Shown here: positions 9,430 to 41,030 of the stretch, one piece after another
Layout: each line of letters begins with the position of its first letter
Position numbering within the stretch: the stretch's first letter is position 1
Assembly: GCA_038087875.1 (NCBI GenBank)
Contig: CM075988.1
Location: 7,876,001-7,940,000 of the forward strand
From: Malacoraja senta
Lineage: Eukaryota
Length of the DNA: 64,000 bases
Direction: 5' to 3'
Translations under genes and position numbers: made by a program
Notes under the pieces: generated by a model
The model's input: only the letters and a program-made list of their open reading frames with translations
Told to the model about the DNA's origin: nothing
The model's database searches: none

Positions 9430-9750
9430 TGTAGAAACAAGGAACTGAAGATGCCGGTTTACTAAAGAAGACACAGAGTGCTGGAGTAACTTAGCCTGTC
9501 AGGCAGCATCTCTGGAGAACATGGATCAGGTGAGGTTTCGGGTCTTCAGACTGATGGAGGTGCCTGACCTGAAATGTTACCTATCCATGTTCCCCAGAGA
9601 TAGACACAAAAAGCTGGTGCAACTCGGCAGGACAGGCAGCATCTCTGGAGAGAAGGAATGGGTGACGTTTTGGGTCGAGACCCTTCTTCAGACTTGGCTT
9701 TTCGTCTTCTCCAGAGATGCAGCCTGACCCGTTGAGTTCCTCCGGCACTC
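9430..9750. repeat. Penelope-derived repeat cluster with a minus-strand hammerhead-like motif at about 9661-9694
   Basis: Same arm sequence as 8505-8960. GGTGACGTTTTGGGTCGAGACCCTTCTTCAGACT reverse-complements to a CTGAAGA-stem II core. Confidence 0.65.
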
Positions 9751-11204: not shown

Positions 11205-11209
11205 GGGTA

Positions 11210-11720
11210 GAAAGGAATTGTAGATGTTGGTTTGTACAAAAAATAGACACAAAGTGTTGGAGTAATTCAGTGGGTCAGGCAGCATCTCTGGAGAAAAGGG
11301 ATGGATGACATTTCGGGTGGGAACTCTACAGCCCAGAAACAGGCCATTTGGCCAATAATGTCCATGGTGAACATAATGCAAAGTTAAACTAATCTCCTCT
11401 GCCTGCACATGATCCATATCCCTCCATTCCCTAACATTCCCAAAAACCTTTAGGCAGAAGAGGCAGAAATCATTCATGGTAAAAGTTCTGTATAAACAAA
11501 GCACTGCAGATACTGGTTTACAACAAAAAGGGCTCAAAGTGCAGGAGTAACTCAGCAAGTCGAGCATCATCCCTGGAGAACATGGACAGGTGACATTCTG
11601 GGTCGGTTCCCTTCCGAGACTCCAATCTAAAGAAGGATCCCGGACCGAAATGTCACCCATCCATGTTCTCCAGGGATGCTGCCTGACCAGCTGAGTTATT
11701 CTAACACTTTGTGTCTTTTT
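11210..11720. repeat. Penelope-derived inverted repeats plus a CR1 3' fragment
   Basis: Arms as at 8505. Hammerhead-like CTAAAGAAGGATCCCGGACCGAAATGTC at about 11627-11654. Confidence 0.6.
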
Positions 11721-11845
11721 TTATGGTAAAAATCCTCTTGCCTTCTCAACCATATATTTAAAAATGCTTCATTAATAGTTGGAAAGAAGAGACTTCACCT
11801 AACCTCATTCTTTCTCATTTTGTGTGTTTCTAAATCTCAATATTT

Positions 11846-14947: not shown

Positions 14948-15261
14948 TGATAACTCAATGGGCCAGGTAGCATCTCTGGAGAAAACAAATAGGTGATGTT
15001 TCGGGTTGGAACCCATCTTCAGACTGAAAGTTGGGAGGAGTGGGGTGGAGTGGGGACTGGAGGTAACAAAAGGCCAGACCAGCACAGGGCTGGCAATAAA
15101 TATTCAAGGAAGGGTGAAGCCCATAATGGTCCATTGTTGGCTGGGGAAGAGGTGATTACGAAGGGAAACATGGATGTGAACAGTGGAACTGGTAGGACGA
15201 CTAGGTTCTAGGTTGGGGGGGGGGGGGGGTGAAGAGGGCCTGCAGGGGCTACTTGAAATGA

Positions 15262-18200
15262 CCCACAAATATTGAATGAAAGATCATGTCAGGAATATCT
15301 TATTAAACAGATGCAAACATTCTTCGAGGCAAATGACAACCCTGACACATCTGTCTCTCTTATTTGGGAGACATTTAAAGCGTTTGTCCGAGGCGCATTA
15401 ATTTCTGCCCAAGTATTTTATAACAAAGAGAACCGGATTAAACAACAAACACTGGAAAGGGAAATAAAGCAACTAGATATAGAAAATGCGAGAATGCCAT
15501 CTAAGTTAAAACATAACAAAATTGCTGTACTGAAATATAAACTAAACAAAATGTATTCAGAACAAGTAATAAAACTTTATCAACATACTAAACAATTACA
15601 TTTTGAGTTTGGAGACAAACCACAAAAACTATTAGCACGTCAGCTACAAAAAATGGAGGGGGAGAAAATAATTCATAAAATTAGAGCAGATACAGGAGAA
15701 TTATTAAAATTACCCAAGGATATAAACGAGAGATTTCTCCAATACTATCATAATCTTTACTCAACTAAAACTGTAGTACAACCAGAAGGAATAGCAGATT
15801 TTTTACAAAAATGTAATTTAAAAGGTTTAGATTCAAAAGATAGAGGATTATTAGAAGCGGAGATTACGATAAAAGATATTGAAGAGTCTATTGGATCTTT
15901 AAAAAATGGTAAAGCAGTAGGACCAGATGGTTTAGGCTCGGAATTCTATAAAAAAAATTATGATTTGCTTTCTCCACGTTTACAAAAGCTGTATGAACAT
16001 ATTTATACTCAACAGAAACTTCCAGATACCTTAAATGAATCTATAATAACACTTATTCCTAAAGCTGATAAGGATCCGGAAGATCCAGGATCATATAGAG
16101 CAATTGCACTTTTAAATACAGATCAGAAAATACTAACAAAAATGTTAGCGCACAGATTAAGTACAGTGATGAATAAACTAATACACCCTGACCAAACAGG
16201 TTTTATTCAGAAGCGGTATTCATATTACAATCTAAGAAGATTATTTAATATAATATATTCAAAGAGAAATATTAATGAAGATTTAGCAATAATCTCACTC
16301 GATGCTGAAAAAGCTTTTGATCAGGTGGAATGGCCCTATTTATTTTCGGTGATGGAAAAATTGCAGCTGGGCGAGAAATTTTGTGCATGGATAAAACTGT
16401 TATATACAAACCCTACGGCTAGAATATTAACAAACCAACGGTTATCATCTAAATTTAACCTATCTAGAGGGTGTAGACAAGGATGCCCGTTGTCTCCATT
16501 ATTATTTGCGCATGTTATAGAGCCACTCGCAGAAAGAGTCAGGACCCATCCGGAAATATATGGGTATAACACAAAGGACACAGTGAATAAAATTTCTTTA
16601 TACGCAGATGATGTATTAATTTACATTACAAAACCAGAAATTAGTATTCCAAATTTATTAAAGCTAATAACCCAATTTGGTTCACTCTCAGGATACAGAA
16701 TAAATTGGAATAAAAGTGAAATTATGCCAATAAGGGAACATAATAAACATATAATACAACAATTTCCATTTAAAATAGTAAATGAAAAATTTAAATACCT
16801 AGGCATTTATGTTACTAAGATATATACATCATTATTTAAAGCAAACTTTCCCCCATTACTGAATAAACTACATAAGAATATTCAGTATTGGAAAACACTT
16901 CCTATTTCAATGGTTGGCAAAATTAATGCCATAAAAATGATTTTCTTACCGCAAATATTATACCTTTTTCAAACAATTCCGATATATTTGTCAAAAACAT
17001 TTTTAAAAAGTTAGATTCCATTGTCAGTGACTTTATCTGGGATTATAAGAATCATAGGATAAGCAAAAAACATCTGTGCAAATCAAAAATAAATGGAGGT
17101 TTGGTTTTACCAAACGTTTTGTTTTATTTTTGGGCAGTTAACATTAAAAATATGAATTTTTGGTTGGAAGAAATAGATCAACAACCAGATTGGTTAAAAA
17201 TGGAAAAGGAAGATTGCTCACCTTTTGAAATCGGCTCGATACTATTTGCTACTTCTAAATTAAATTAAAAAAATTATAGGGAAAATCCTATAATATATAG
17301 TACTATGCGAATTTGGAAACAATTAAAAAAGACATTAAAACTAGATAATTTATCACTTTTTCTTCCAATTGCGAATAACCCTTTGTTTAAGCCCTCATGG
17401 TTGGACAAAGGTTTCACACAATGGAAAAACTATGGAATTAAAAAGATGGGACACCTTTATAAGGAAGGCACTTTTCTTTCATTTCAGGAGTTGCAACAGA
17501 TTTATGGACTTCAAGTAAATGATTTTTTCAGATATCTCCAACTTAGAGATTACGTAAAAGCAAATACTCGAAATTTTATAATTAGAAATTCAGAAATTTT
17601 TGACGACTGTTGGAATAAACATCCTAATACAGAAAAACTAATATCTTATATATATAATATTTTATTAGACAGCGATATCCCATTGACGGACTTACACAGA
17701 CAAACTTGGGAAAAAGAACTAAATCAAATAATAACGAAAGATACTTGGGAAGAAAGTTTACAACACATACATCAATGTTCATTAAATGCCAGACATTCTC
17801 TAATACAATTCAAAGTAATACATAGGTTACATTATTCTAAAACAAAATTAAATAAAATCTTCCCACATATCTCACCAATATGTGATAAATGTCAACATTT
17901 AGAAGCTAACTTATCTCATATGTTTGCAAATTGCATAAAAATTAAAAATTTCTGGGTAAATATTTTCACAATAATATCTAAAGTGACTAGCATTCAATTG
18001 GACCCGGATCCAAAATTGATAATACTTGGAACATTAGAACTAAATCAAACATTTACAACAACTCAAAGAAACTTTATTGATTATAGTATAATAACTGGGA
18101 AAAAAATAATTCTAAAATTTTGGAAAGGCCCTATAACCCCCACAATTAAAATGTGGATTATAGAAATGACGGAGACCTTACACTTGGAAAGAATTAGACT

Positions 18201-18712
18201 TGTCCTGTTGGACAAACAGGAACTATTCGTCGGAACATGGTCTCCCTTTATTGACTATTTAAAGGGTCAGAATGGTTCAGCACAGGAACCTGACTAACAC
18301 CCGTGCCAAGGAATAGATGAAAGGTTATACTCTGAAATGTACGAATATATCTCGAATGAAGTTTTTTATCGTAGTAAATTATTCCATTCTTCTTTATTAT
18401 CTTTTTTTTTTTTTTTTTGTTTTTTTGTTTTGTTTTGTTTTTTTTGTTTTTGTTTTTTGTTTTGTTTTAGGTTGGTTTTTTTGGGGGGTTTTTTCTTGTT
18501 TCTTCTCTTTTTTCTCTTTCTTTCTTTCTTTATTTCATCTATATCTTTTTAGTTCTATTTAGTTTTAAAAAAAAGAAAAAAGTATTGGAGACATTGTAAT
18601 AATAATGGACGATATTTGTAATTTAAAAATGTAAGACTGGTATCGATTTTAATATGATATGTATCTACCTCCAATAAAAAATATCTTAAAAAAAAAATTT
18701 TTTTTTTAAAAA
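15262..18712 (+). mobile_element. 5'-truncated L1/Tx1-like LINE (ORF2 RT and C-terminal Zn region, T-rich 3' UTR)
   Basis: ORF2 motifs GKAVGPDG, SYRAIALLNTDQK, LDAEKAFD, RQGCPLSP, YADD and CDKC...H...C. AATAAA at 18673. TSD GAAATGA at 15255-15261 and 18713-18719. Confidence 0.92.
15272..18297 (+). pseudogene. L1-like ORF2 (reverse transcriptase), frameshifted near 17005 with a further stop near 17266
   Basis: The 580-aa and 330-aa ORFs are consecutive parts of one ORF2. The endonuclease domain was lost by 5' truncation. Confidence 0.88.
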
Positions 18713-18747: not shown

Positions 18748-20677
18748 TGATTGATTATACCTTTAATAATCCTTTGCAGGAAATTACAATGCCACGACAG
18801 CTTCAAGACAGACATAACACCACAAATAGCTTCCATACTTAACAAGTTAAAATACAAGTTAAAATACAAGTTAAAATACAATTAATTAAAAAAAGTGGAG
18901 TTATTTATGCGCATTATATATATAACCTTATAGCAGCTGGTAAACAGGACTTCCTACGCCTCTCAGTTTTGCACATTGGTGCAATCAGTCTCTGACTGAA
19001 GATGCTGCTCTTGATCACCTTCAGGGCATGGAGTGGGTGAGTGGGGTTGGTCATTATAGAACCCAGTTTTTTCAGAGTTCTGGCCTCTGCCACCTGCTGG
19101 ACCGTTCGTTGCTCAGCCCCGACCACTGAGCCGGCCTTCCTGATCAGTTTGTCCAGTCTGTTTTTGTCCGCTATGCGAGCGCCATCTCCCCAACAGGCCA
19201 CCGCAAAAAACAGAGCACTGGCCACCACTGAATGGTAGACACTGCACAGTAGGGGTTGGCAGATGTTAAATGCCCTCAGCCTCCTTAAAAAATACAGTCG
19301 GCTTTGTCCCTTCCTGTACACCGCCTCCATATGACACTTCCAGTCCAGCTCACTGTCAAGCTGCACACCAAGGTACCTGTGGTTAGCGACCACCTCCACC
19401 TCAGTGCCCTTAATGGTGATTGGTGTTGCTTGAGTCCTCCTCCTCCCCCTCCTGAAGTCCACAACAATCTCCTTGGTTTTTGTGGTGTTAAGATGGAGGT
19501 TATTGAGTGCACTCCACTCCACAAAGTTACTTATTATGTCTCTATACTCCTCCTCATTGCCCCCTTTAATGAGGCCGACAACAGCTGTGTCATCCGAAAA
19601 TTTCTGCAAAAAGCAGCTGTTTAGAGATTAGAGATTAGAGATTAGAGATTCCTTTATTTGTCATTCAGACCTTTCGGTCTGAACGAAATTTCGTTGCCTG
19701 CAGTCATACATATAATAATAAATGACAAAACACACAATAAACACAAATTAACATCCACCACAGTGAGTTCACCAGGCACCTCCTCACTGTGATGGAGGCA
19801 AAAGTCTTAAAGTCTCTGTCTCTTCCCGCTTTGTTCTCCCTCTGCGCTGAGGCGATCCAGGCTTCTGATGCTGTGGCCCCGCCGGGCGACGGTAAGCCAG
19901 TCCCGCGGCCGAATCCGTGCTCCGTGACGGGCCGGCTCAAACTCCGCGGCCCGGGGTGGTCGAAGCTGCCGAAGCTGCCGCCCTCCAGTCCAGCGGACGC
20001 AGCTGTAGTTGTGGGAGCCCCAGAAAAACAGGTCACCAACCTGTGACCTGCGCGCTCCCGACGATGTCGTCCACTGGGCCCGCGGCCGAGCCTCCGGACT
20101 CAGGTCGCCACCAGTGTCCTCGGTCGCCACCGCCGGAACGCCACCGCAGCCCCGAATTTGGCCAGCCCCGCGCTGGTAAGTCCTGGCTCTGCCTCCGGAG
20201 CATCGTGGTCGGTCGGTCGCTCGCAGTTGGAGTTGGAGGCCGGCAGCTCGCAGTTGGATTTGGAGGCCGGCAGCTCCGCCATTTTGGCCTCAGCGCAGAC
20301 GGAGGCAGAGAAGGGGGATACGACAAGAAAAAGTCGCATTCCCCCGAAGGAAGAGACAAAAGTCATGTTTCACCCCCCCACCCCACAACCCCACACATAC
20401 ACAACCCAATAAACTAAAATTTAACTAAAACAGGACAAAAGAAAACAACAAAAAAAGTAAAAACAGACGGACTGCAGGCAAGCCGCTGCTGTATGACAGC
20501 GCCGCCACTTCCGGAAGTTGGTGTTATATCGGAGATCCGCTGTGTAGATGGTAAACAGGAATGGAGCCAGCACAGTTCCTTGTGGAGCCCCTGTGCTGCT
20601 CAAGATGGTGCTTGAGACATTGTTGTTCTGTAGGCGCACGTACTGTGGTCTGAGGGAAAGGTAATCCAAACACCACA
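18748..20677 (-). mobile_element. Rex1/Babar-type LINE fragment interrupted by a non-autonomous element
   Basis: WCLDYLSLRPQYVRL...GAPQGTVLAPFLFTIYTADLRYNTN joins SCFLQKFSDDTAVVG...AIRLYI across the insertion. (AATC)n tail at about 18748-18757. Confidence 0.88.
19622..20516 (-). mobile_element. About 0.9-kb GC/CpG-rich non-autonomous retroposon with a Rex1-like 3' stem-loop and (AATCTCT)n tail
   Basis: Begins TTCCGGAAGTGGCGGCG and ends TTCAGACCGAAAGGTCTGAATGACAAATAAAGG(AATCTCT)4. Cleanly splits the Rex RT frame, with a GTT duplication. Confidence 0.75.
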
Positions 20678-23110: not shown

Positions 23111-23269
23111 TGTTGTGTATGAGATTATGATTAGCATAACTGAATGTCTTATGCAATTGTACGCATGCGCAGAGAGACTCAAGATGGCGATAACTAAACA
23201 ACAAGCATGTTAAATCCTGTGGTGTTCCGAGTCTTATTTTATGTCCGATTCCAGCGCAAATACATAACA
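23111..23269 (+). repeat. Gypsy 5' LTR
   Basis: Aligns without gaps to 34366-34524, with 11 substitutions counted by eye. Confidence 0.95.
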
Positions 23270-23272
23270 ATT

Positions 23273-23286
23273 TGGTGACGAGGATG
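23273..23286 (+). promoter_or_regulatory. Primer-binding site, probably tRNA-Ser(GCT)
   Basis: TGGTGACGAGGATG lies 3 nt after the LTR, one transition away from TGGCGACGAGGATG. Confidence 0.7.
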
Positions 23287-24045
23287 CCCTTGGTGGACTC
23301 CTTGTCTTAACTAGTCCAGACGCCTTACAGGAACAGTATTGCTGTCGATTTGAGGCTTTCTCAAGATCGAACATAAAGTTAAAGACGAGTATGTATTCGG
23401 CGCGCAAAAAGGTGGAACAGGAACGCACGATCGCCATGCAACAAGCAGTGCTATAGCGGGGCAGCGCAGCTCACAGAATAAGCCTAGCCAGCAGAGCATC
23501 AACTGTGTTTGCTTACCTTAAACGCTTTCCAGTGCCGTGCAGCCCACGGCCAAGTCAAGCAACCGAGAGCCAGCGCCGGTGATAACGCAAGGACACATCG
23601 GTAAGCGGTGCAGCCCGGGAAGCCAGCAAAGCCAGCCCGTGACGCCAGCCCGAGAGGTCACCGATGCACCGGAGTCCAGAGACAGTCAAGTCGGTCCGGT
23701 GAATTCATCGCAGCAAGAGCTGGACTTTACGAATTGAGTGTATTGATCAGTGATGAACAATAATTTAGAGGATATATGTGTGCACTGCATGTATATGGCT
23801 TGAAATATATTAGTATATTATTATATTAGTATATTATTAATACTAGTATATTGGTATAAATCGATTATTATATTAGTATATTATTATATTGATATATTAG
23901 TATAAATTGATTAGTATAAGAGAATTATTGGTAGTGAATTTACTTGATAATTGCTCAGTTATTTTGGTAAAGGAATTAAGTCCATTGCAGAGAACATTGT
24001 GTAAGAGGACGGCACGTTGTGTAACTCAGTAGCAACAGTGTAACC

Positions 24046-25084
24046 ATGGCCAATCTAATCGTTGGGAATATGCCCCAGTTAGAAACTGGTTATACTTTTG
24101 AGGAATGGACCGAAGTCTTAGAGGTTTGGTTCACTTCAAATGATATCACTACAGAAGAGAAGCAAAGAGCATTGTTCCTTACAGGTTTAGGAAGCAAGGG
24201 TTATCACACCTTAAGGGTGTTGCTGCAGCCAGCTAAGCCCGCTAGTAAAACGTACATGGAATGTAAGGAGGCTTTAATTGCTCATTTCTCGCCAAAACCA
24301 ACAGAAATAGTGCAAAGATACTGATTCTATACATGCACACAAGCAAATGAAACAATCCCTCAGTTCCTATCAAAGCTTCGGCAATTAAGTGATGGGTGTA
24401 ATTTTAAAGAACTGGAGAATATGCTAAGAGATAGATTGGTGGTAGGATGTGCAGACGTTAACATCCAGCAAAAACAGTTGGGTACACCAAAATTAACCTT
24501 TGAGAACGCAGTCAATATTGCGACAGCGATGGAGGTTACCAAGCAAGATGTAGAGCAGATCAAGAAGATCGGAAGCCTCAAGATGATTTTACCTCCGTCC
24601 ATCAGCATCAAAGGAAGGCGTCTGGACTAAAGAAGACAAGGAGTCCACCAAGGGCATCCAAACACAAGGTCCAATACTCCAAGAAGTGCTGGAGATGTGG
24701 CGGCAGCCATGAGCCAGCAACGTGTACATTTAGAGATGATAGGTGCTTCAGGTGCTCGGGAACGGGTCACACCAAATGCCAGTGTGATGCTGTTAGAGCT
24801 TACCAGCAGAGGAGGGGACAATCCCAGAAAAAAGCAAACCACTTGGAGGAGACTGATTCGAATTCATCAGAGGGAACCATGAGCCACTTGGAAGATGAAT
24901 CGATCAACAAGTTGACGAACTCTGAACCGTATGCAGCCACTTTGATAGTGAACGGCAGGGAGGTACAACTAGAAGTTGACACTGGAAGTCCATGGACTAA
25001 CGTACCGGGAGAAGTCTTCTGAAAACTCGGTCAGGACCCCAGACTAGATCCCTGTAGCCTCAAGCTGAAATCCTACATGGGCGA
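24046..25084 (+). pseudogene. Gypsy gag (two Cys/His knuckles) and protease N-terminus
   Basis: FEEWTEVLEVWF..., MLRDRLVVGC, CWRCGGSHEPATC...CFRCSGTGH and LEVDTGS, with several stops and frameshifts. Confidence 0.85.
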
Positions 25085-25599
25085 TGTGAGAAAGGGGTTA
25101 ATAGGTATAAGTTGATTTAGACAAGAACCCTTTGTATAGTAGGGAGTATAGTAGGGAGGATAGGGGGAGTAAAGGACAAATACAAATGGTGACTTTTCAA
25201 GGATGAGAACAGAGAAGATAAGGAGACCATCCATTCTGGAATTAGGGTAAGGGTCATGAGAAACACTCTGTGCGCTTGCGTAATGAGATAAATGAATATT
25301 GCAAACACACCCATCATGACAAGATGTCTCATTTAAATGTACATGCGATGTATGATGTGGGAGGCACCAGGGGCGGTACCTGTAGAATGTGCACCTCAGT
25401 GCTCTGATTTGACAAGAGCCCGAAGGGGAGGAATAAATGTAACAAATGTAAAATGATGTGAATAAGAGAGAGATGAATTCCATCTCTCGGTGTGTCTTGA
25501 CAGGGGAGACACCCAACTCTGCAGACTTGCTAATAAATAAACTTGTTTCTCTACATTCTCTACGCATCGTGAGTGTTCTTTCACAACTTGCGCCTGACA
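25085..25599 (+). repeat. ERV 5' LTR
   Basis: Only two differences from the 3' LTR spotted by eye. AATAAA at about 25532-25541. Confidence 0.95.
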
Positions 25600-25602
25600 G
25601 CT

Positions 25603-25622
25603 TGGGGGCTCGTCCTCGGGAT
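25603..25622 (+). promoter_or_regulatory. tRNA-Pro primer-binding site with a 2-nt insertion
   Basis: TGGGGGCTCGTCC-TC-GGGAT versus the canonical PBS-Pro TGGGGGCTCGTCCGGGAT. Confidence 0.85.
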
Positions 25623-26009
25623 CCCCACTCCGGCCAGCTGGCGACAGTATACGGAAGAAGGGACGGTGCACCCCGTTGATTTCAACGGTCCCAGACCCCT
25701 AGATTGTCGTCAGCGGTTTGAGCGAGTGATATCCAGGACCAGAGATTAGAGAAACAAGTGGGAGTTCCGATCCGGAGGAAGATCGGGGGGAAATTCGCGA
25801 AGGAGCCAAATCGAGTGATTCTTGTGCACAAGACCCGGGTAAGAAAACTGACAATTAAGTACTACTCGGGCGATTAAATAAGACCTTGTGGATACCGCCC
25901 TGAAGAATTCAGGGGTCTGTACGGGCAAGGCAGAAAAGGCGGGAAAATAGATCTGGGGTAAACAGATCGGGGGTAAACAGATCGGGGGGGGGAAATTCCG
26001 ATCGGGAGG

Positions 26010-27750
26010 ATGGGCAATGAAAACGGAAAGCCCACCAGGGAGGGGAAGGGCGGTAAGCCCGACCCCAGCATTCTGCCTGATAGTCCGTTGGGGCGAATGC
26101 TGAGCCTCTGGGGGCAGAGAAATACCCAGGGAATTGGAGGACAAAAATGATTGAGCCTCTGGAGGCAGAGAAATACCCAGGGAATTGGAAGACAAAAATG
26201 ATTTGATTCTGTTATATTGAGTTTTAATACATGTAAAAGATGTTGCATTTATTGAAGTAAGAATGGAACGAATGTGATTTGTGTGCAAAAACCGGTTTGG
26301 AATGAAAGAGGAAGTTTATATATGTGATAATTATTTTGTTTATTGTATTTGTAGACCACATTGTAAGAGTAAGTAAGTAAGTTTTATTAAAATCAAAAAT
26401 GTTCACTGTAGGTAGGTGTATGTTCCTTTAAATAAATCAGGTCATGGTGAAAGGCGCCGAACAGCTGTAAGATAACGGTTAATGTTTGTATCCTCGTAAG
26501 AAGGGGAAGTTGTAAAACCAGCTTTTGGTTATTCTGATGTTCTTTTAGATTTCTAGTCAGTAAAGATAATTTGGAAAATTGTTACTAGTGCTAGGAATTG
26601 GACATTTAAAATAGTGGTGAATATGGATTGAAATAATTGGAAATAAGTTAATTGGTAAACATTCAAGTTTAGAAAGAAAGGAGAGAGAGGCAGTTAGAAG
26701 ATAACAGAAGTAGAAAAACGACAGGCGTGAAAGTAATAAAGCAGGAGGAGTCAGTGGAAGATTTTTGCAAGGAGGCTAGAATATTTGAGAAGCAAGAAAT
26801 TGAGTTTAGAATTAGAAAGAAGGCATACCAGAAAGGATTAAAGTTGGAAGCATTGGGATAAAGTGATGAGACTGCTTTAAAGAGAAAAGAGAAGGACAGA
26901 CACGGATTATCCCTTGGGGCACCCATAAACTGAAAGGGCTAAAAAATACCTCACCCTATATCCCTGATAGGGGAGGAAATTGATTAGGGCTTTGGAGGAG
27001 GAGAACGTGGGACTATTATTGATCATGGAAGATTTGAAGGCACTGTTGGTAAAAGTGATAGGAACCACTAAAGTGACAGAACTGAAGATGGATGGTATAA
27101 ACTGATACGAACAATGTAACAAGCAATGGCATACTGTTTGACACAGTCAGGCAGAGGGTATGGCAGACCCTCAGACAATGTTACCCACTTAAGAGGAACC
27201 CCAAGGAACAAGGGGAGATACAGAAGGAAAGGCAAATAGCCTATCTGGAAAACCAGCTGAAAAGGTGGAGAGTTGATTGATGAACATTATATTATGAACA
27301 GGCAGAGGGCATGGCAGGCCCTCAGACAATGTAATCCAGCAGCCTATCTGGAAAACCAGCTGAAAAGGTGGAGAGTTGATTGATGAACATTATATTATGA
27401 ACTACTGTGGTGGATGTCATTCTTCTTAAAGTCAAGCAGATTCAGCGAACAGTTGGTCTCTGTGGTCGAGAAATATCGCAAAGATAGGAAAAAGACTTGC
27501 AAACCAGCAGGAGGAGTTGTTGTCAATAAACAATGGACCTAAGTGAGTCCTATGACGGAACCAAGCAGGGCCAGAGAATTACATGCCAATAATGAATGTC
27601 TTTGGGGTACGTTTCCTCAAAAAGTCCTATCAGGAGTGAAATTAATCTGGATATAAGCCCTAACAGGACTGGGGTCCCCAAGAGAGAAAGGGATTTAAAG
27701 GAGGATTTGTTGATATTGTTCCATAAGTAACAAGCGATGTAAGAGAGAGA
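26010..27750 (+). pseudogene. ERV gag remnants
   Basis: MGNENGKP...ILPDSPLGRMLSLWG is a myristoylation-type, class I matrix-like start. A degraded IPWG...IRALEEENVGLLL..DLKALL segment follows at about 26900-27090. Many stops. Confidence 0.65.
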
Positions 27751-27859
27751 GAGAGAGATTTAAAAAAAAAATACTTCAGAATGTAGGACAGAGTATGATA
27801 ACCTCGGGAAAAGGCAGGATATAGTTCAGACTAGATTAGGTATAAGCCCTGTAGTGTCG

Positions 27860-28170
27860 TTTATGATGAATAAGGTAATTAAGAGGTTTGGTAGACCTAC
27901 AGAAATCAGCTTTGACAACGGATTGTTTTTATTTAGAGTGTAGCTAAGTTGGCGATAGAGACCCTTAGAGTAAAATACACATTTGGGTATGTAACACCTG
28001 CAGTCACAGGCATGGTGGAAAGAATAAATGGAACATTGAAGGTTAATATAAATAAGATTTGTTTAATATACAAGTCTATTTATGAACAGGAAAAGTAAAA
28101 GCTGTTGGAGGTGGACCAGGAGGAAGGACCCTTTAAACCTGAAGACAAGGTGTATGTATAAGTTTTCTAA
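27860..28170 (+). pseudogene. Degraded retroviral-type integrase remnant (first of two)
   Basis: VIKRFGRPTEISFDNG...QSQGMVERINGTLK...KSIYEQEK...GPFKPEDKVYV, read across frameshifts. Confidence 0.7.
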
Positions 28171-28329
28171 ACTACCGACCGATGTTCAGGTAGAAGGTTG
28201 ATATACCTGGTACCAATTCAATAATTACATGAGGGCTGTCCCGCATGTACGAATAGATAATAGCCCTGAGGTAAGTGAACAGGAGGACAAGAGATGTGAG
28301 AAAAGAGTAGAGTTTGAACAAGAACGTTG

Positions 28330-29272
28330 TTTGACATCAGTGGTGGGCAAAATAATGGAAAGCATACTTAAGACAATATATAAGAATAGGGTAGGATTAG
28401 GAAGAATTAGCATGGATTTGTGATTGTGATGTTTGACTAATCTTGAATTTTTTTAAAAGGTTATTAGGGAAATTGATGAGGGTAAAGTGATGGATGTTGA
28501 CTAGATGAACTTCAGTAAGGCCTTTGACAAGGTTCAATAAGGAAATAAGGTTGGTTAAGAAGGGTTAGTAAGGAATAGCAAGATGGATTAAAAAGTGGCT
28601 GTATGGGAGATGTCAGAGAGCAATGGTGGATGGATGTTTGTCAGGTTGGAGGTCAGTGACTAGAAGGGTACCTCGGGGATGTGTGTTGGGTCCACTGTTG
28701 TTTGTCATGTGAATCAATAATCTGGATGTTGGTGTGGTAAAATAGATTAATAAGTATGTAGATGATACTAAGATAGGTGGTGTTGTGAATAATGTAGATT
28801 TTAAAAAGTGTACAGAGAGATTTAGGTCATTTGGAAGAATGGGTTGAAACATGACAGATGGGTTTAATGTTGATAAGTATGAGATGATACATCTTGGCAG
28901 GACAAATCAAAATTGAATGTACATGGTAAATGATTGTGAATTGAGGAATGAAGTTGAATAGAGGGATCTAGGAATAACTGTGCATGGTTCCCTGAAGGTG
29001 GAATTTCATGAAGATAGGATGGTAAAGAAAGATTTTGGTGTGTTGGCCTTTATAAATCAGAGCATTGTGTATAGAAGTTGGGTTGTAATGTTAAATTGTA
29101 CAAGGTATTGGTGAGGTCAATTGTGGAGTATGGTGTATAATTTTGGTAGGCATAATTATAGGAAAAGGTCAACAAAATAGAGAGAGTACAGAGGAGATCA
29201 ATTAGAATGTTGACTGGGTTTCAGCAACTAAGACACAGAGAAAGGTTGAACAAGTTAGGTCTTTATTATTTA
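28330..29272 (+). repeat. CR1 LINE RT fragment captured inside the ERV, strongly C-depleted
   Basis: LTSVVGKIMESIL, FSKAFDK, VTRRVPRGCVLGPLLFV, KYVDDTKIGG, ERVQRR. No CR1 3' UTR or tail seen. Confidence 0.85.
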
Positions 29273-29289
29273 GGAACGATAGAAGGGGT

Positions 29290-29666
29290 CCCAACAAATA
29301 CAAGGGAATGATGTATTCCTAAGGAACTATTTACTGGCAGTATCTCGTTCTATTACAGAATTAAGAACCAAGGGGCTGCTGGCACAGAGTCCCCATCTCG
29401 ACTTTCCAATCCATTCTGTGAAAGCGGGGGACTGGGATCTTGTAACATCATGGAAGGAAGAAAAGCTGCAACCTAAGTGGACTGGACCCTACCTGGTGTT
29501 ACTAATCACCGAGACAGCAGTACGAACAAAAGAAAAAGGGTGGACACACGCAAGCCGATTTAAGGGTCCTGTGGAGGCCCCACCAAACAATATCAGCCCG
29601 TGGACTGTGCGCAAAGGAGAGGAACCATTGACTTTAATATTTAACAAGAACCCGCGGGAAAAATGA
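29290..29666 (+). pseudogene. Class I retroviral integrase C-terminus (GPY/F region), frame open
   Basis: FLRNYLLAVSRSITELRTKGLLAQSPHLDFPIHSVKAGDWDLVTSWKEEKLQPKWTGPYLVLLITETAVRTKEKGWTHASRFK. Confidence 0.85.
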
Positions 29667-30811
29667 AGATTTCGTGTTGGTGGGTCGTGTGTTGGGTGGT
29701 TACCCAACTATGTAAGCATACAGAGTGTTCAAATGCAGGAAAGTGGAAGGATGTGCAGATAGAACAGGGAGAATGAGCCTAAGGATTTGAAGATAATGAT
29801 AGTAGCAGGAGAAACAGAATTAAGGCAATTATATGAGATGGGAATACCTACAGGAGGGAAGGGAGCCAACACCTGGCTTGCCTGGATGATGTACACGGCC
29901 AGGAGTATGCAACACACCAATTGCTACGCCTGCGCCGGAGCTAAGCCTCAGCTGGTTCCAGAACCATTTCCCTTGAATTGGGATAGGACACCTGGGGCTA
30001 TGTCATGTATACTACAGCTATTCACGAATCCCATCCTACCAAAGGATGCGACCTGCCAGAGTTATCATTACCTATTCCCGGCTAGCAACAACAATACAAA
30101 GGGCCGAAGGACAGACACTTCAACACACACATATATATAGATGCGATAGGGGTGCCAAGAGGGGTACCCGATGAATTCAAAGCCAGAAACCAGATAGCTG
30201 CGGGCTTTGAGTCCATACTCTTCTGGTGGTCCACACTTAATACAAATGTGGACTGGATCAACTACCTATACTACAATCAACAACGCTTTATAAATTACAC
30301 TCGAGATGCGGTTGAAGGATTAGCGGAACAACTGACAGATACCAGCCTAATGGCCTGGCAAAATCGCATGGCCTTAGACATGCTACTGGCTGAGAAGGGA
30401 GGGGTGTGTGTAATGTTTGGGGAACAATGTTGCACCTTCATCCCCAACAACACTGCTCCTGATGGGTCAGTATCGAGAGCCCTAGCAGGTCTCACCTCCC
30501 TGTCTATCGAATTGGCCGAGAACTCCGGAGTAGACACCTCCTGGACCGGGTTTCTAGACTCCTGGTTTGGGAAATGGAAGCACATCTTTACCTCAGCCCT
30601 AACATCAGTGGTAGTTATGATGGGGTTGCTGTGCATATTTGGATGTTGTATCATTCCCTGCGTACGGGGGTTGTCTCAGCGATTGATAGAGACAGCCCTG
30701 ACCAAGAATGACGCCGCCATGATGGCCTTTAAAACACAGTATGACCAGCGAGAGGAAGATAAAGAGGCGAAGATTCTGCTGCTAGCATTAGAGAAGGGGC
30801 AGATAGTCTAA
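29663..30811 (+). pseudogene. env: Gamma-type env: signal peptide, partial SU (CYAC) and intact TM; internally deleted and frameshifted
   Basis: MKISCWWVVCWVV signal peptide and SU CxxC motif CYAC. TM reads YIDAIGVPRGVPDEFKARNQIAAGFES..., with ISD WQNRMALDMLLAEKGGVC, CX6CC (CVMFGEQCC), a hydrophobic anchor and tail. No furin RxKR site seen. Confidence 0.9.
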
Positions 30812-30847
30812 ATCAAAGATTGCAGTAGCAAAAGTAAAAGTGTGGAT

Positions 30848-31362
30848 TGTGAGAAAGGGGTTAATAGGTATAAGTTGATTTAGACAAGAACCCTTTGTAT
30901 AGTAGGGAGTATAGTAGGGAGGATAGGGGGAGTAAAGGACAAGTACAAATGGTGACTTTTCAAGGATGAGAACAGAGAAGATAAGGAGACCATCCATTCT
31001 GGAATTAGGGTAAGGGTCATGAGAAACACTCTGTGCGCTTGCGTAATGAGATAAATGAATATTGCAAACACACCCATCATGACAAGATGTCTCATTTAAA
31101 TGTACATGCGATGTATGATGTGGGAGGCACCAGGGGCGGTACCTGTAGAATGTGCACCTCAGTGCTCTGATTTGACAAGAGCCCGAAGGGGAGGAATAAA
31201 TGTAACAAATGTAAAATTATGTGAATAAGAGAGAGATGAATTCCATCTCTCGGTGTGTCTTGACAGGGGAGACACCCAACTCTGCAGACTTGCTAATAAA
31301 TAAACTTGTTTCTCTACATTCTCTACGCATCGTGAGTGTTCTTTCACAACTTGCGCCTGACA
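30848..31362 (+). repeat. ERV 3' LTR
   Basis: Near-identical to 25085-25599. Preceded by the purine-rich AAAAGTAAAAGTGTGGAT. Confidence 0.95.
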
Positions 31363-31367
31363 GGCGA

Positions 31368-34108
31368 GAAGGTTGACATTTACGGACAAGCAGCGGTACA
31401 GGTACAGCTCGAACCTCACAGGAAGCCAGAAACGCTGACCCTAGTGGTAGTAAAGAAAGGTGCATGCCTAATGGGAAAAGACTCGTTGAGGAAGTACCCT
31501 GGATTGCTGTCAAATCTAGCCAGCTAGAACACACTAGACCCAAGCCTAAGTACATCGAGTAGTATACAGTTTGCAAGAGGCCATGAGCTCAGTACTCAAC
31601 AAGCACGCCAAGCTGTTTGATAACAGCACCCATGAAGGGATACCAAGCCAAAGGGTATCCACAAGACGAAAACAGTGGAGCAAAGTTTTACAAAGCAGCT
31701 CCTGTTTCATATGCTGCTAGAAAGCTGATTGATGCCGCATTGGATGACGTGCTGCAGGATGGCATTATCAAGCCGGTGAAGACAGCAGATTTCACATGCC
31801 CGATCATAGCTGTTACAAAACCAAATGGGAGCATGAGTCTGTGGCAATTACAAGCTCACAGCAAATAAGGTGCTGAAAGTGGAACAGTATCCACTTCCCA
31901 CTTTGGAGGATCTCCTGCAGGAAATCTCCAGAGGAGAAAAGTTCTCTAAATTAGTCCTCTCACATGCCAATTATCAGATAGAGTTAGGCCATGAAGCTCG
32001 GAAGTTCACCACAATAAATACGCACAAGAGTCTCTTCGAGTATACCAGGTTACCCTTTGGGATATCCAGCGCAACAGCCACGTTCCAGAGAACAATGGAG
32101 AGCCTACTAGCGGATATTCCCATGTGCAAGCTGTATATCTGGATGATATCATCATCAGCGGGAAGACTGACGAAGCGGTCCTGTCAAGACTAGAAACCAG
32201 TGGGTTACGTCTGAAGAAGGAGAAGTGTGCACTGATGCAAGAGTCAGTCGACTATCTCGGATATTGACTGAACAAGATTGGTCTTCGTCCTCTTCCAGAC
32301 AAAGTTGATGCGGTGCGGGAAGCAAAGCGGCCTGTGAATCAAAGCCAACTCCAGGCATACCTCGGCTTACTTGGGTATTACAGGATGTTTATACCTAACC
32401 TGTCACAGGAGATTGCACCGTTGACTCTAATGCTGAAGGATGAGTACAGATCAGCAGATTCAAAGAGTGGGAGAAGCAGCGAGCCTGATCCCATGTTCAA
32501 ATGGGGAAAGGAGCAAGAGCAGGCATTCCAGAGATCCAAGCGTCTCCTGCAGAATGATAGTGTTCTGACGCATTACGATCCAGCGAAAACAATTCTGCTT
32601 CAAACTGATGCAAGCCCCTATGGCTTAGGTGCTGTGATAAGCCATGTTGAATCAGATGGACAAGAATACCCAATAGCGTTTGCCTCACGCACTCTCAAGC
32701 CCAGCGAAGTGAACTACGCACAATATGAAAAGGAGGGTTTATCCATAATCTTCAGACTGAAGAAGTTCCACAAGTAGTTACATGGGAGGTCTTTCACCAT
32801 TGTGACTGATCACAAGCCTCTGATGGGATTATTGGGAGACCACAAGCCTGCCAGCCCAATGGCCTTTGCTCGCATAGCAAGATGGCATATGATCCTGTCT
32901 GCCTACAGTTATAAGATTGTCCATCGAGAAGGCAAGAAACACCAGAATGCAGATGCGTTGTCGCACTTGTCGATCCACGAAGAGGACTCTTCATGGAATC
33001 ACCCTGAGCTCGCGGAGCTTGATGAAGCACCAGAGGCACGCATCAACATGCTCACCGATCTGGAAACATGCCCTGTTGATGCACAGGAAGTGAAGAGAGC
33101 TACCAAATCCATCCATGGGAGTTTCCTGAGAGACCGTGGAGTAGGATTCACTGTGATTATGCCAGCCTTGATGAGGAGAATTTGCTGATTGTGGTCGATG
33201 CTCACAGCAAATGGATTGAAGCCATTCGGGTGAAACACGCAAAAGCAGCGGCAACAGTGATTGCCCTGGGACCGTTGTTTGCATCTCATGGGTTACCGGG
33301 AATGCTGGTCACATATAATGGTACGCAGTTTGTGTCTGAAAAATTTGCCAGGTTCCTCAGGAGCAACAACATCTGCCACATTCAAACATCACCCAAACAC
33401 CCGCCCAGCAACGGACTAGCTGAAAGAGGTCTACAAATGGTGAAAGCAGGTGTGAAGAAAGGAAAAGGATCCAACCTGGAAATAAAGATCCAGAAGTTCT
33501 TGCTGACTTACCGAGTCACACCTCAAGGAACGACTGGAAAGTCACTCTGTGAACTGATGTTCAGACGAAAGATCCGCACTAAACTTAACAGTCTGCGACC
33601 CAATCTAAGCCAATCTGTCCGAAGGAAGCAAGCTTCAATGAAACAGGCAGCAGATCGAGATAGCAAGGAATGAGTCTTTGAGGTGAATGATCATGTCATG
33701 GTCAAGAACTTCACATCAGGTCCTACTTGGCTTTACGGAATGATAGCAGAAGTCATCAGTGAAGTCATGTACAACGTAAAGTTGAGTGAGGTAAGAGTCG
33801 TGCGTCGTCATGTAGATCAAATGAGAGCATACTTGCCTAAAGGTGATGAGCACACCGAGTTCCAGCAAAGAGAAGTGGTTCAACCAAGCGAGGAGCCAAT
33901 GATGGTTCTGCCTACTCCACCCGCATTGGATCCTGAAAGAACTTCAGAGAGTGAGTCCACAGTGATAACACAACATCACCACCAGAGCCTGATATCTCAG
34001 ATAACATGCAAAGTCCAACAGACTTTGTCTAATAGGATGTCTAATCGCATGTCTAATAGGACTAAAAGAACACCTAAAAGATTTGAGGATTTTGTTCTTT
34101 ATAAGTGA
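31368..34108 (+). pseudogene. Gypsy pol remainder (protease C-terminus, RT, RNase H, integrase, GPY-like end)
   Basis: YPLPTLEDL, FTTINTHK..FEYTRLPFGISSA, (Y)LDDII, LQTDASPYGLGAVISH, TDHKPL, LIVVDAHSKWIE, NGLAER. Multiple frameshifts; the integrase Zn-finger appears deleted near 33110. Confidence 0.9.
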
Positions 34109-34352
34109 AAACATAAGTGAAAAGCAATGTGTCATTTATATGGTTTGCCACACCACGTTTAAGGAAGATGGGTGGAATATTATGTAAAAATCATGTGCCA
34201 AGTTTACTTTATGCATGTTTATTACTGTTATGATGATCTAATTGTAAGATGACTTCCATAATACGACTTGGAGAACAGTGTATTATTCAATTATATTTTG
34301 TGTACAAGATCATATACAGTGAAGGTGAAATGGTGTTACCTGCCTCCAAGCT

Positions 34353-34365
34353 AAAGGGGGAAGAG
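34353..34365 (+). promoter_or_regulatory. Gypsy polypurine tract
   Basis: AAAGGGGGAAGAG abuts the 3' LTR. Confidence 0.85.
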
Positions 34366-34524
34366 TGTTATGTATGAGAATATGATTAGCATAATTGAAT
34401 GTCTTGCGCAATTGTACGCATGCCCAGAGAGACTCAAGATGGCGATAACTAAACAACAAGCACGTTAAATACTGTGGTGTGCCGAGTCTTATTTTAAGTC
34501 CGATTCCAGCGTAAATACATAACA
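34366..34524 (+). repeat. Gypsy 3' LTR
   Basis: 159-bp copy of 23111-23269, followed by TSD GAGTT. Confidence 0.95.
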
Positions 34525-34560
34525 GAGTTGGTGCATGTCACATGGCTGCTACAAATGTGA

Positions 34561-35391
34561 CAAGTACAGCTCCTGAAGGACCGTGTTGGGGAACTGGAGA
34601 AGCAAGTGGATGACCTCAGGTTTGTCCGAGAAACGGAGTCGTTCCTCGACAAGTCCTACAGTAAGATTGTTACACCTAAAGTACTGGAAGAGAGAAGGTG
34701 GGAGACAGTGAGAAAGTGAGGGAAGCATGGAATGCAAACGTCCCCGGGTGTTGTACCTCTTGTGAACAGGTTCACCCACTTAGAAGCTGTCGGGACAGAA
34801 GACGTATTGACACTGAGCGGCAGACTGGCTTGCGATGCGAATAGGGCTGTTGAGCCAAAACCAAAAAGGCCAAAGTCAGGCAACGCCATTGTAGTGGGAG
34901 ACTCCATTGTGAGAGGTACGGACAGGGGTTTCTGCGGCAACAGACGGGATTCGAGGATGGTGTGCTGCCTTCCTGGTGCCAGGATCCAGGATGTCACGGA
35001 CAGATTGCAGAAAATCCTCAAGGGCGAAGGTGAACAGCCGGAAGTGGTAGTGCATGTCGGCACAAACGATGTCGGAAAGAAGGGGATGAATATTCTGCAG
35101 CGTGACTTTAGAGAGCTCGGAAAAATGCTGAAAAGCAGGACCTCCAGGGTTGTTATCTCCAGTTTGCTTCCAGTTCCTCGTGCTGGCGAGAGCAGGAACA
35201 GGGAGATACGGGACCTGAATGTGTGGCTGAGGAACTGGTGCACGGGGCAGGGATTTAGATTCTTAGATCACCGGGATCTGTTTTGGAGTAAAAGGGAACT
35301 GTACAAAAGGGACGGATTGCATCTTAACAGGTGGGGGACCAGCATTCTGGCAGGCAGGTTTGCCACTGCTACACGGGTGGTTTTAAACTGA
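34561..35391 (+). pseudogene. CR1 ORF1: coiled coil plus SGNH/GDSL esterase
   Basis: QLLKDRVGELEKQVDDL..., VVGDSIVRG, VHVGTND, DGLHLN. One in-frame TGA at about 34717. Confidence 0.88.
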
Positions 35392-35617
35392 ATAAGGGGG
35401 GTGGGGTGTCGAATGGGATAGTTGAGGATGGAATTAAAGGGAAAGGGTTTCTTAAATGTGTGAGCGTAGAGACAGAGGGGTGTAAAATGAGGGTAGAAGC
35501 AATAGGTAGCAAGGTGAAAAGTAAAAGTGGCAGGCAGACAAATCCAGGGCAAAAATCAAAAAGGGCCACTTTTCAACATAAAAGGGTAAGAGTGTTGTAA
35601 AAACAAGCCTGAAGGCT

Positions 35618-38411
35618 TTGTGTCTCAATGCAAGGAGCATTCGTAATAAGGTGGATGAGTTGAATGTGCAGATAGCTATTAATGACTATGATATAGTTGG
35701 GATCACGGAGACATGGCTCCAGGGTAACCAAGGCTGGGAGCTGAACATCGAGGGATATTCAATATTCAGGATAGACAGAAAGGGAAAGGAGGTGGGGTTG
35801 CGTTGCTGTTTAGAGAGCAGATTAACGCAATAGAAAGGAAGGACATTAGCTTGGAGGATGTGGAATCGATATGGGTAGAGCTGCGAAACACTAAGGGGCA
35901 GAAAACACTAGTGGGAGTTGTGTACAGGCCACCTAACAGTAGTAGTGGAGTTGGGGATGGCATCAAACAGGAAATTAGAAATGCGTGCAACAAAGGTAAA
36001 ACAGTTATAATGGGTGACTTCAATCTGCATATAGATTGGGTGAATCAAATTGGCAAGGGTGCTGAGGAAGAGGATTTCTTGGAATGTATGCGGGAAAGTT
36101 TTCTAAACCAACATGTAGAGGAACCAACGAGAGAGCAGGCTATTCTGGATTGGGTATTGAGTAATGAGGAAGGGTTAGTTAGCAGTCTTGTTGTGCGTGG
36201 CCCCTTGGGCAAGTGTGACCATAATATGGTTGAGTTCTTCATTAGGATGGAGAGTGACATTGTTAATTCAGAAACAAGGGTCCTGAACTTAAAGAAACGT
36301 AACTTTGAGGGTATGAGAAGTGAATTGGCCAAGATAGACTGGCAATTGATTCATAATGGGTTGACGGTAGATATGCAATGGAAGGCATTTAAAGACTGCA
36401 TGGATGAACTACAACAATTGTTCATCCCAGTTTGGCAAAAAAATAAATCAGGGAAGGTAGTGCATCCATGGATAACAAGGGAAATCAGGGATAGTATCAA
36501 AACAAAAGATGAAGCGTACAAATTAGCGAGAAAAAGCAGCCTACCAGAGGACTGGGAGAAATTCAGAGTCCAGCAGAGGAGGACAAAGGGCTTAATTAGG
36601 AAAGGGAAAATAGATTATGAAAGAAAACTGGCAGGGAACATAAAAACTGACTGCAAAAGCTTTTATAGATATGTGAAGAGAAAAAGATTAGTTAAAACAA
36701 ATGTAAGTCCCTTGCAGTCAGAAACAGGTGAATTGATCATGGGGAACAAGGACATGGCAGACCAATTGAATAACTACTTTGGTTCTGTCTTCACTAAGGA
36801 AGACATAAATAATCTGCCGGAAATAGCAGGGGACCGGGGGTCAAATGAGATGGAGGAACTGAGTGAAATCCAGGTTAGCCGGGAAGTGGTGTTAGGTAAA
36901 TTGAATGGATTAAAGGCCGATAAATCCCCAGGGCCAGATAGGCTGCATCCCAGAGTACTTAAGGAAGTAGCCCCAGAAATAGTGGATGCATTAGTGATAA
37001 TTTTTCAAAACTCTTTAGATTCTGGAGTAGTTCCTGAGGATTGGAGGGTAGCAAACGTAACCCCACTTTTTAAAAAGGGAGGGAGAGAGAAAACGGGGAA
37101 TTACAGACCAGTTAGTCTAACGTCGGTAGTGGGGAAACTGCTAGAATCAGTTATTAAAGATGGGATAGCAGCACATTTGGAAAGTGGTGAAATCATTGGA
37201 CAAAGTCGGCATGGATTTATGAAAGGTAAATCATGTCTGACGAATCTTATAGAATTTTTCGAGGATGTAACTAGTAGAGTGGATAAGGGAAAACCAGTGG
37301 ATGTGTTATATCTGGACTTTCAGAAGGCTTTCGAAAAGGTCCCACATAAGAGTTTGTATACAAACTTAAAGCACACGGTATTGATGGTTCAGTATTGATG
37401 TGGATAGAGAACTGGCTGGCAGACAGGAAGCAAAGAGTAGGAGTATACGGGTCCTTTTCACAATGGCAGGCAGTGACTAGTGGGGTACCGCAAGACTCAG
37501 TGCTGGGACCCCAGCTATTTACGATTTATATTAATGATTTGGACGAGGGAATTGAATGCAACATCTCCAAGTTTGCGGATGACACGAAGCTGGGGGGCAG
37601 TATTAGCTGTGAGGAGGATGCTCGGAGGCGGCAAGGTGACTTGGATAGGCTGGGTGAGTGGGCAAATGCATGGCAGATGCAGTATAATGTGGATAAATGT
37701 GAGGTTATCCACTTTGGTGGCAAAAGCAGGAAAGTAGACTATTATCTGAATGGTGGCCGATTAGGAAAAGGGGAGATGCAACGAGACCTGGGTGTCATGG
37801 TACGCCAGTCATTAAAAGTAGGCATGCAGGTGCAGCAGGCAGTGAAGAAGGCGAATGGTATGTTAGCATTCATAGCAAAAGGATTTGAGTATAGGAGCAG
37901 GGAGGTTCTACTGCAGTTGTACAGGGTCTTGGTGAGACCACACCTGGAGTATTGCGTACAGTTTTGGTCTCCTAATCTGAGGAAAGACATTCTTGCCATA
38001 GAGGGAGTACAGAGAAGGTTCACCAGACTGATTCCTGGGATGTCAGGACTTTCATATGAAGAAAGACTGGATAGACTCGGTTTGTACTCGCTAGAATTTA
38101 GAAGATTGAGGGGGGATCTTATAGAAACGTACAAAATTCTTAAGGGGTTGGACAGGCTAGATGCAGGAAGATTGTTCCCGATGTTGGGGAAGTCCAGAAC
38201 AAGGGGTCACAGTTTAAGGATAAGGGGGAAATCTTTTAAGACCGAGATGAGGAAAACATTTTTCACACAGAGAGTGGTGAATCTCTGGAATTCTCTGCCA
38301 CAGAAGGTAGTTGAGGCCAGTTCATTGGCTATATTTAAGAGGGAGTTAGATGTGGCCCTTGTGGCTAAAGGGATCAGGGGGCATGGAGAGAAAGCAGGTA
38401 CAGGATACTGA
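35618..38411 (+). pseudogene. CR1 ORF2: APE endonuclease plus reverse transcriptase, two frameshifts (about 35780 and 37350)
   Basis: CLNARSI, GITETWL, VYRPP, MGDFN, CDHN, NYRPVSLTS, LDFQKAF, SGVPQ, KFADD...GEKAGTGY*. Confidence 0.92.
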
Positions 38412-40015: not shown

Positions 40016-40660
40016 ATCAGATTCAGATTGTGCGAGGTCATTTGCATGTAGTAAATGGGCTTTTGGGGGGGGGGGGGATTTATACCCTAAGACTCGGCAA
40101 CTGTTATCCTCTTAGATTGAAAAATAAATCACACAAATATATTGAAGATAGGCACGAAATGTTGGTGTAACTCAGCGGGTCAGGCAGCATCTCTGGAGAA
40201 AAAGAATAGGTGGCATTTTGGGCTGAGAACCTTTCTCAGACTTCTCACTAATATATTGGTTTTTTAATGTTTGATTGTATCTGAAGTCCCCTATTTGAGA
40301 GGATGTGAAGCCACACTAGTTTCATCTATGGTTGATTAGTGTTCAATTCTAAGCTCATCAAGTCTTCATTACATGTTAAAGAAGCAACAACAAACCAAGT
40401 CTTCTCACCAGCCAACACTATTTAAGCTTTGGATACTTGGACTATTGTGACTGTTGGTAGCCATTGCTGAACTCTCAGAATGTTTGTCAGGTTTCCCTGG
40501 AGATAAGTGTGAGTTCAGAGGATGCCACAATGCAAAGCACTGTTTCCAGGGAGACGAATGTGAGGTCAAAATGGGATTACACGGCAACAAATGGAATGAG
40601 GTCTGGCTTTTCCTCAGAACAAACATATTCAGGAAAAGAGTCGATACCTTTAAACATTAA

Positions 40661-41030
40661 ATATATAGGAAGGAACTGCAGATGCTGGCTTAATCCGAAG
40701 ATAGACACAAAACGCTGGAGTAACTCAGCAGGACAGGCAGCATCTCTGGAGAGGAGGAATGGGTGACGTTTCGGGTCGAGACCCTTCTTCTGCCTGCAGA
40801 AGGATCTCGACCCGAAACGTCAACCATTCCTTCTCTCCAGAGATGCTGCCTCTCCCGCTGAGTTACTCCAGCATTTTGTGTCTATCTTCACTGTACCTAG
40901 CTACATGGGGCAATAAATTACCATTGAACCATTGAAGAATGGTCTCCACCCAAAACGTCACCCATTCCTTCTCTCCATAGATGCTGCCTGGCCCACTGAG
41001 TTACTCCAGAATTTTGGGTCTATCTTCACC
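40661..41030. mobile_element. Penelope-derived inverted-repeat element with back-to-back hammerhead-like motifs
   Basis: Arms about 40695-40790 and 40795-40890 are reverse complements. TTAAACATTAA is duplicated at 40650-40660 and 41031-41041. Confidence 0.7.

Follow-up and report, generated by a model that had tools for sequence, protein, structure and literature searches.

Introduction

Several kinds of hybrid or defective endogenous retrovirus (ERV) have been described. In recKoRV1, a recombinant of KoRV and PhER, the ends and a 3' part of env from a young retrovirus enclose an older, degraded middle; the accessible part of that report (PMC6112702) also describes many copies, disrupted open reading frames (ORFs), microhomology at some breakpoints and target duplications. 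Harlequin and other class I human ERV (HERV) mosaics moved by 'midwife' elements combine several parents, occupy many loci and have matching long terminal repeats (LTRs), according to the available portions of two studies (PMC4724089, PMC5753468). The bovine ERVK[2-1-LTR] D-type elements are defective, are mobilised in trans by autonomous elements and outnumber them (PMC10924933, in the part available). LTR-mediated RNA capture, as set out in excerpts of two further reports (PMC5131818; ERV-Hako, PMC11905727), places a foreign fragment between LTRs, with microsimilarity at the junctions and re-amplification of the product. Here we describe an ERV with likenesses to all of these systems, at positions 25085–31362 of a stretch of 64,000 nucleotides (nt) from the skate Malacoraja senta (GenBank assembly GCA_038087875.1, contig CM075988.1, positions 7,876,001 to 7,940,000, forward strand), which we call the window.

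Very probably, this element is one recently integrated member of a multicopy class I ERV family without coding capacity, which combines what is left of gag and integrase from a first retroviral lineage (A), a fragment of a CR1 long interspersed nuclear element (LINE) and, from a second lineage (B), env and the end of the integrase; lineage B helpers are likely to copy the family in trans. ERV hybrids of this kind are already known from recKoRV and Harlequin. What is new is the LINE cargo, the very distant parents and a loss of cytosine (C) from the sense strand. A literature search covering neither supplements, most subscription papers nor Repbase/Dfam found no description of a skate ERV hybrid with CR1 cargo. 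A sequence-only reading of the window had earlier proposed a similar picture, which proved right in its main lines: the anatomy, the shared decay and the two lineages were confirmed.

Results

The interior of the element follows the order that the sequence-only reading had given: a primer-binding-site (PBS)-like site, gag, an integrase remnant, CR1 reverse transcriptase (RT), a second integrase and env. All features of the element, its target duplication and its host element are on the plus strand. The PBS-like site (25603–25622) lies just past the 5' LTR and is presumably of the tRNA-Pro type; the 64-kb window contains no tRNA genes. The leader and candidate matrix start (25600–26200; ATG at 26010, 46 amino acids (aa)) have a C content of 20–21%, a CpG observed/expected ratio of 0.95 in the leader and a 51-nt tandem duplication at 26101–26203, and found no homologue in protein searches. 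The following stretch (26201–26850) is poor in C (7.8%) and gave no protein match; it is probably decayed lineage A gag. Beyond it lies the capsid remnant of lineage A gag (26857–27515), which matches P0132/P0136 at 36–49% and contains stops, frameshifts and an internal duplication (27238–27299, repeated at 27341–27402). P0136 itself resembles retroviral Gag clusters, which is weak evidence. The lineage A integrase remnant (27797–28326) comprises the core, a deletion, a C-terminal part and a tail, with matching sequence up to about 28240. Its core is 59–61% like stingray P0134/P0138, and its C-terminal part is 44% like the mormyrid protein P0131. To judge from loose contig ends, the deletion at 28066/28067 is absent from other copies. 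Pfam searches of gag and integrase A with X read-through returned no relevant match in any of the 6 frames.

The 3' half of the interior begins with a fragment of CR1 ORF2 (RT) in sense orientation (28327–29271; C 7.3%, 1 CpG). It is followed by the lineage B integrase C-terminus (29258–29666), which is 85% like the Leucoraja erinacea pol P0121 and matches MLVIN_C (E = 1e-8). This second integrase C-terminus had been called intact; it is present but damaged, with a frame change at about 29297. Lineage B env (29664–30811) matches TLV_coat (E = 8e-11), and its transmembrane subunit (TM) is 89% like the Leucoraja env P0153. The part of env encoding the signal and surface subunit (SU) is broken by a stop and frame changes, with a large SU deletion near 30117 and about 118 residues gone before TM; the TM frame (30086–30811) is free of stops. 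On reading by eye, T residues break up the polypurine tract ahead of the 3' LTR (30812–30847).

No retroviral protease, RT or RNase H was found, as had been claimed. One of the related pol queries itself spans these three domains, and the related pol proteins match only the integrase pieces above noise; the three enzymes are therefore taken as absent. With the coding capacity for gag, pro, pol and full env all lost, the element is non-autonomous.

Protein comparisons indicate a separate retroviral origin for each of the two integrase pieces. The lineage A and B pol proteins are 31–33% identical. Lineage A (gag and first integrase) matches ERV proteins of rays and teleosts (stingray, mormyrid fish), and lineage B (second integrase and env) is 85–89% identical to little-skate ERV proteins, the closest named proteins being those of Leucoraja erinacea. 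In a tree of integrase cores (14 rows, none dropped; P0124 short at 67 aa, and the long P0124/P0126 branch left uninterpreted), the first remnant joins three lineage A proteins with support of 93/92. Its path distance is 0.65–0.86 to the A proteins, compared with 1.72–1.78 to skate pol B. P0135 gave no plus-strand match and was set aside. A simple duplication of one integrase was also considered and rejected, with only 12-nt chance matches between the pieces by blastn (E = 0.52). The divergence of the pol proteins, the grouping of integrase A with the A proteins and the lack of mutual alignment bear out the two parental retroelements postulated earlier. Lineage A may be an epsilon-like fish ERV, and lineage B may be related to HERV-I/HERVIP.

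A gamma-type env TM (TLV_coat) and an MLV-like integrase C-terminus (MLVIN_C) place the element in class I. The RT of the lineage B relative has MLV RT as its best match (E = 7e-112). Relatives of the lineage B TM at 62–74% occur in sharks, teleosts, amphibians, birds and human, the human ERV env P0014 at 62%. In little skate, the P0121 cluster holds six named pol predictions of 882 aa that are free of stops.

The 5' LTR (25085–25599) and the 3' LTR (30848–31362) are each 515 nt long and bounded by TG...CA. Compared with one another they are 99.6% alike, with mismatches at 2 sites (25180/30943 and 25455/31218), and a perfect 5-nt target-site duplication, GGCGA, flanks the element (25080–25084 and 31363–31367), both as originally noted. 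Some class I ERVs make 5-bp target duplications. Paired TG...CA LTRs with a 5-nt duplication identify an LTR provirus placed by retroviral integration, for which the accessible text of PMC11905727 gives a target duplication of 4–6 bp. The length of the duplication had been regarded as anomalous, which goes too far. This is a single site, and KoRV and recKoRV1 integration sites have duplications of 4–10 bp in the available part of PMC6112702; a literature search on class I target-duplication lengths found nothing. At the substitution rate assumed for sharks (2.2e-10; PMC4422223, as excerpted), 2 mismatches in 515 nt correspond to an age of 8.8 million years (Myr; 95% range 1.1–31.9), and at the mammalian rate quoted in the same excerpt to 0.9 Myr (0.1–3.2). 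The insertion can safely be called recent. The earlier term 'very young' is too strong, the range being 1–32 Myr at the assumed shark rate.

The ERV lies within an older Gypsy element. The Gypsy 5' LTR (23111–23277) and 3' LTR (34366–34533) are 92.3% alike over 168 nt. Between them, a gag/protease region recognised by its frame (24049–25084; gag start read by eye) is split by the ERV, and beyond it lie the decayed end of the protease and the RT, RNase H and integrase, likewise decayed (31363–33673; RVT_1, RT_RNaseH_2, rve). The Gypsy reading frame enters the target duplication and picks up again from the duplication beyond the ERV. The nesting order agrees with the LTR ages, since the Gypsy LTRs are 92.3% alike and those of the ERV 99.6%. 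The Gypsy element as a whole (23111–34533) is decayed, with short LTRs of 168 nt, and its family is multicopy in contigs of public sequencing runs.

Other copies of the ERV were assessed from contigs of 5 of the 24 listed public runs, with X1, X2, X3, X4 and X6 among their codes. Coverage of positions 25900–29700 was scored in 30 bins at a likeness of at least 96%. All 30 bins were covered in X1 and in X2, 29/30 in X6 and 15/30 in X3. Places differing from the window in at least 30% of the depth numbered 12 in X1, 10 in X2 and 9 in X6, of 3,801. Half the LTR divergence predicts 7.4 differences, near the 9–12 seen; the interior is about 0.3% from the family majority, in line with the LTR age. 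Because there are only 9–12 majority differences in 3,801 places, most stops and frameshifts are family-wide and older than this insertion. The decay predates this integration, as the sequence-only reading had held. That reading had also foreseen other copies with the same stops and identical junctions; the shared stops were found, and the junctions are not identical in all copies, deletion variants being present.

The CR1 cargo variant was amplified along with the retroviral parts. Depth in X1 was 8953, 8499 and 6491 at cargo-specific places, 6645 in gag and 6285 in integrase A, in agreement with the earlier proposal that LINE cargo is carried. Single-contig depth reached 2512 in gag (X2) and 795 (X2) and 918 (X6) in the cargo, with the shallowest contigs listed at about 25–30; this suggests, as a rough figure, tens to hundreds of copies. 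The ERV family was found under four coded organism labels. Run X3, which has another organism label, contained near-identical pieces of the element at 26930–30960, in 13 of 30 bins and at a depth of about 3, without the Gypsy flank. Full provirus scans returned 0 loci in viral contigs and 0 in metagenomes. A joint between 25076 and 31360, present in X1, X2 and X4, was considered as an empty allele and rejected. It is read as another Gypsy copy because the only listed piece running in from it carries 22 differences over a length of 297 nt.

Several observations weigh against the reading of a multicopy hybrid of two lineages mobilised by helpers. Summed contig depth is not copy number, a caveat of the tool. 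Of the 32 pieces listed, out of about 10,045, none extends 31 nt to each side of a CR1 junction. One listed piece passes the 5' CR1 junction by about 19 nt, and where A or CR1 is linked to B in other copies, the joints have sides of only 24 nt. The copies vary in structure, with an integrase deletion and with a variant lacking 26133–26314 (a 182-nt leader deletion). Other copies are known from run contigs only, and helper-type pol from little skate only. In the integrase tree, the fork falls under the tool's star threshold and the integrase A remnant sits on a long branch. Homology searches assigned no parent to the leader, the matrix start or the LTR; the C content of the leader and matrix start is normal, like that of the lineage B part.

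The short reach of the listed contigs over the CR1 junctions would suit a mosaic existing at this locus only, in which gene conversion from separate multicopy families had patched an old provirus, with homogenisation of its LTRs or their collapse during assembly. The accessible part of PMC4724089 cautions that LTRs of very low divergence are sometimes misleading. We consider such a local mosaic quite improbable: the cargo variant itself is deep, X1 bin depth passes from 7648 to 7510 across the A/CR1 junction without a dip, and the distance of the interior from the family majority agrees with the LTR age. Since 2 sites differ, the LTRs are not a plain collapse. The sequence-only reading had named an interior unique to this locus as the outcome that would overturn it, and the contigs cover the interior at high depth.

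A dead provirus without enzymes, and with a polypurine tract that looks interrupted, might also have spread as DNA, by segmental or tandem duplication and not by reverse transcription. This explanation is barely credible in view of the clean TG...CA ends and the perfect 5-nt duplication inside the Gypsy frame. Moreover, the flanks were not co-amplified, since X1 depth is 116–337 in the flanking Gypsy bins and 1,457–9,412 in the retroviral bins.

The CR1 fragment does not have the form of a standard CR1 insertion, which retains the 3' end with its tail and is truncated at the 5' end. The end of ORF2 is absent: the match stops at residue 248 of the 353-residue C-terminal ORF2 piece, about 105 residues early. 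A 13-residue pol match at 29258–29296 overlaps the end of the CR1 match, with about 14 nt of shared similarity, and this overlap is likely the crossover point. For the entry of the CR1 sequence, we give even weight to ordinary insertion of genomic CR1 into a provirus of lineage A, with later loss of the 3' end at the A/B crossover, and to RNA capture. Insertion has the merit that a single crossover accounts for the absence of the CR1 3' end as well as for the point where B starts, and these genomes are very rich in CR1. The sense orientation and the absence of either CR1 end, however, fit capture as well, which the available text of PMC5131818 describes for mRNAs, and no CR1 tail or duplication is left as evidence of insertion.

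Sense-strand C content, which the sequence-only reading had not remarked on, varies along the element. It is 7.3% in the cargo, 7.8% in 26201–26850 and 13–16% in the remnants of gag and integrase A, and it rises to 20–23% in the leader, matrix start, integrase B and env. The depletion is strand-specific and confined to the decayed middle (26201–29271). Over the region of the cargo, two comparator CR1 copies have 12.5% and 14.9% C. One comparator is a near full-length CR1-like LINE at 34720–38411, with a 223-aa upstream ORF and ORF2 in frames of 556 and 353 aa. The comparators are only 63–65% alike, so the alignments are noisy, and the three-way counts that follow are not independent. In three-copy columns where exactly two agree, it is the cargo that lacks C in 30 of 49 cases and G in 41 of 138 (p = 1.4e-4). 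In the cargo, C has given way to T at 16 places, to A at 10 and to G at 4, and G>A is not raised (30, compared with 37 and 31). C was kept at 26/56 places in the cargo and 52/71 in controls (p = 0.003), G at 113/154 and 226/323 (p = 0.52). None of 559 windows of 945 nt outside the element was as poor in C or G. The C loss is family-wide, because no majority difference in the contigs involves C, and it points to a middle of greater age than the ends.

The poverty in C may have arisen without any special process, from donors (the CR1 subfamily and lineage A) that were already C-poor, together with ordinary CpG decay. We rate this as possible, somewhat short of an even chance. CR1 in the window is already skewed, with 10.8–15.6% C in five other stretches, the comparators align noisily, and strand biases of LINEs are known (PMC9099904, in the part available). 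Yet the cargo falls to 7.3%, it kept G as the controls did and C not, its losses include C>A and C>G beside C>T, and no outside window is as extreme. A more speculative and rather unlikely interpretation is that the dead middle records a cytosine-targeting process acting on the sense strand of a cartilaginous-fish retroelement, on the strand opposite to that of APOBEC3-type G-to-A changes. Packaged RNA might have undergone C-to-U editing, or an AID/APOBEC1-like enzyme might have deaminated the non-template strand. If this is true, the CR1 cargo would serve as an internal neutral reporter for which the genome supplies many controls, and the hybrid would be a LINE-carrying vector that outlived one helper lineage by switching to another.

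The remainder of the window holds further repeats. An L1/Tx1-like ORF2, so labelled by eye, occupies two long frames of 585 and 342 aa at 15257–18297. On the minus strand, LINE RT fragments at 10215–11720, 18914–19627 and 59378–60040 have a Rex1/RTE-like look by eye. A sequence resembling a miniature inverted-repeat transposable element (51884–52185) has a 79-nt perfect inverted repeat around a 144-nt spacer, and a tandem array at 54784–54968 consists of about 5 copies of a 36-nt unit, a period that is a multiple of three. Short interspersed repeats at 8496–9749, 11200–11724 and 40105–41029 often form head-to-head inverted pairs separated by anything from a few to several hundred nt.

Discussion

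The following sequence of events would produce the element. A lineage A element may have lost its coding role and taken up CR1 sequence, and this A/CR1 element would have been copied or expressed long enough to shed sense-strand cytosines. After co-packaging with a lineage B virus, RT could have switched templates at the short similarity between CR1 and the B integrase. Another switch, at about 26200, would have placed B ends around the A middle, the parentage of the LTR and leader being putative. The hybrid, having kept its LTRs, primer site and leader, may then have been amplified by B proteins to tens or hundreds of copies, with further deletions, and one copy would have integrated into the older Gypsy. 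Mobilisation in trans by helpers is likely; we infer it because the element is without enzymes and a coding-competent lineage B relative exists in little skate.

The pattern known from recKoRV and Harlequin, in which a young virus recombines with an old, dead element and the hybrid spreads, is extended to cartilaginous fish. The element also serves as a warning that a conflict between the LTR date and the state of the interior may have a genuine biological cause. Finally, the sense-strand C loss offers a way to test how retroelements are mutated or restricted in cartilaginous fish.

The element is closest in sequence to the little-skate class I ERV (P0121 pol, P0153 env), resembling it at 85% in the integrase C-terminus and 89% in TM, with an MLV-like RT in that relative and the MLVIN_C and TLV_coat domains; unlike the little-skate ERV, it has the 3' part only. 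The bovine ERVK[2-1-LTR] D-type belongs to class II and to one clade, and its mobilisation was measured, whereas that of the skate element is deduced. In comparison with LTR-mediated RNA capture, the skate cargo is a fragment of LINE ORF2 located at the joint of two viral lineages. With recombinants of the recKoRV and Harlequin type, the element shares segments from two distinct retroviral lineages. The parents of Harlequin-type mosaics are mostly related viruses, according to the available portions of those studies, whereas the parents of the skate element are about 31% identical in pol and CR1 cargo is added. Unlike that of recKoRV1, the middle of the skate element also contains part of a LINE; in addition, a second integrase and the greater part of env are retained, the host is a cartilaginous fish and the 5' end is of putative parentage.

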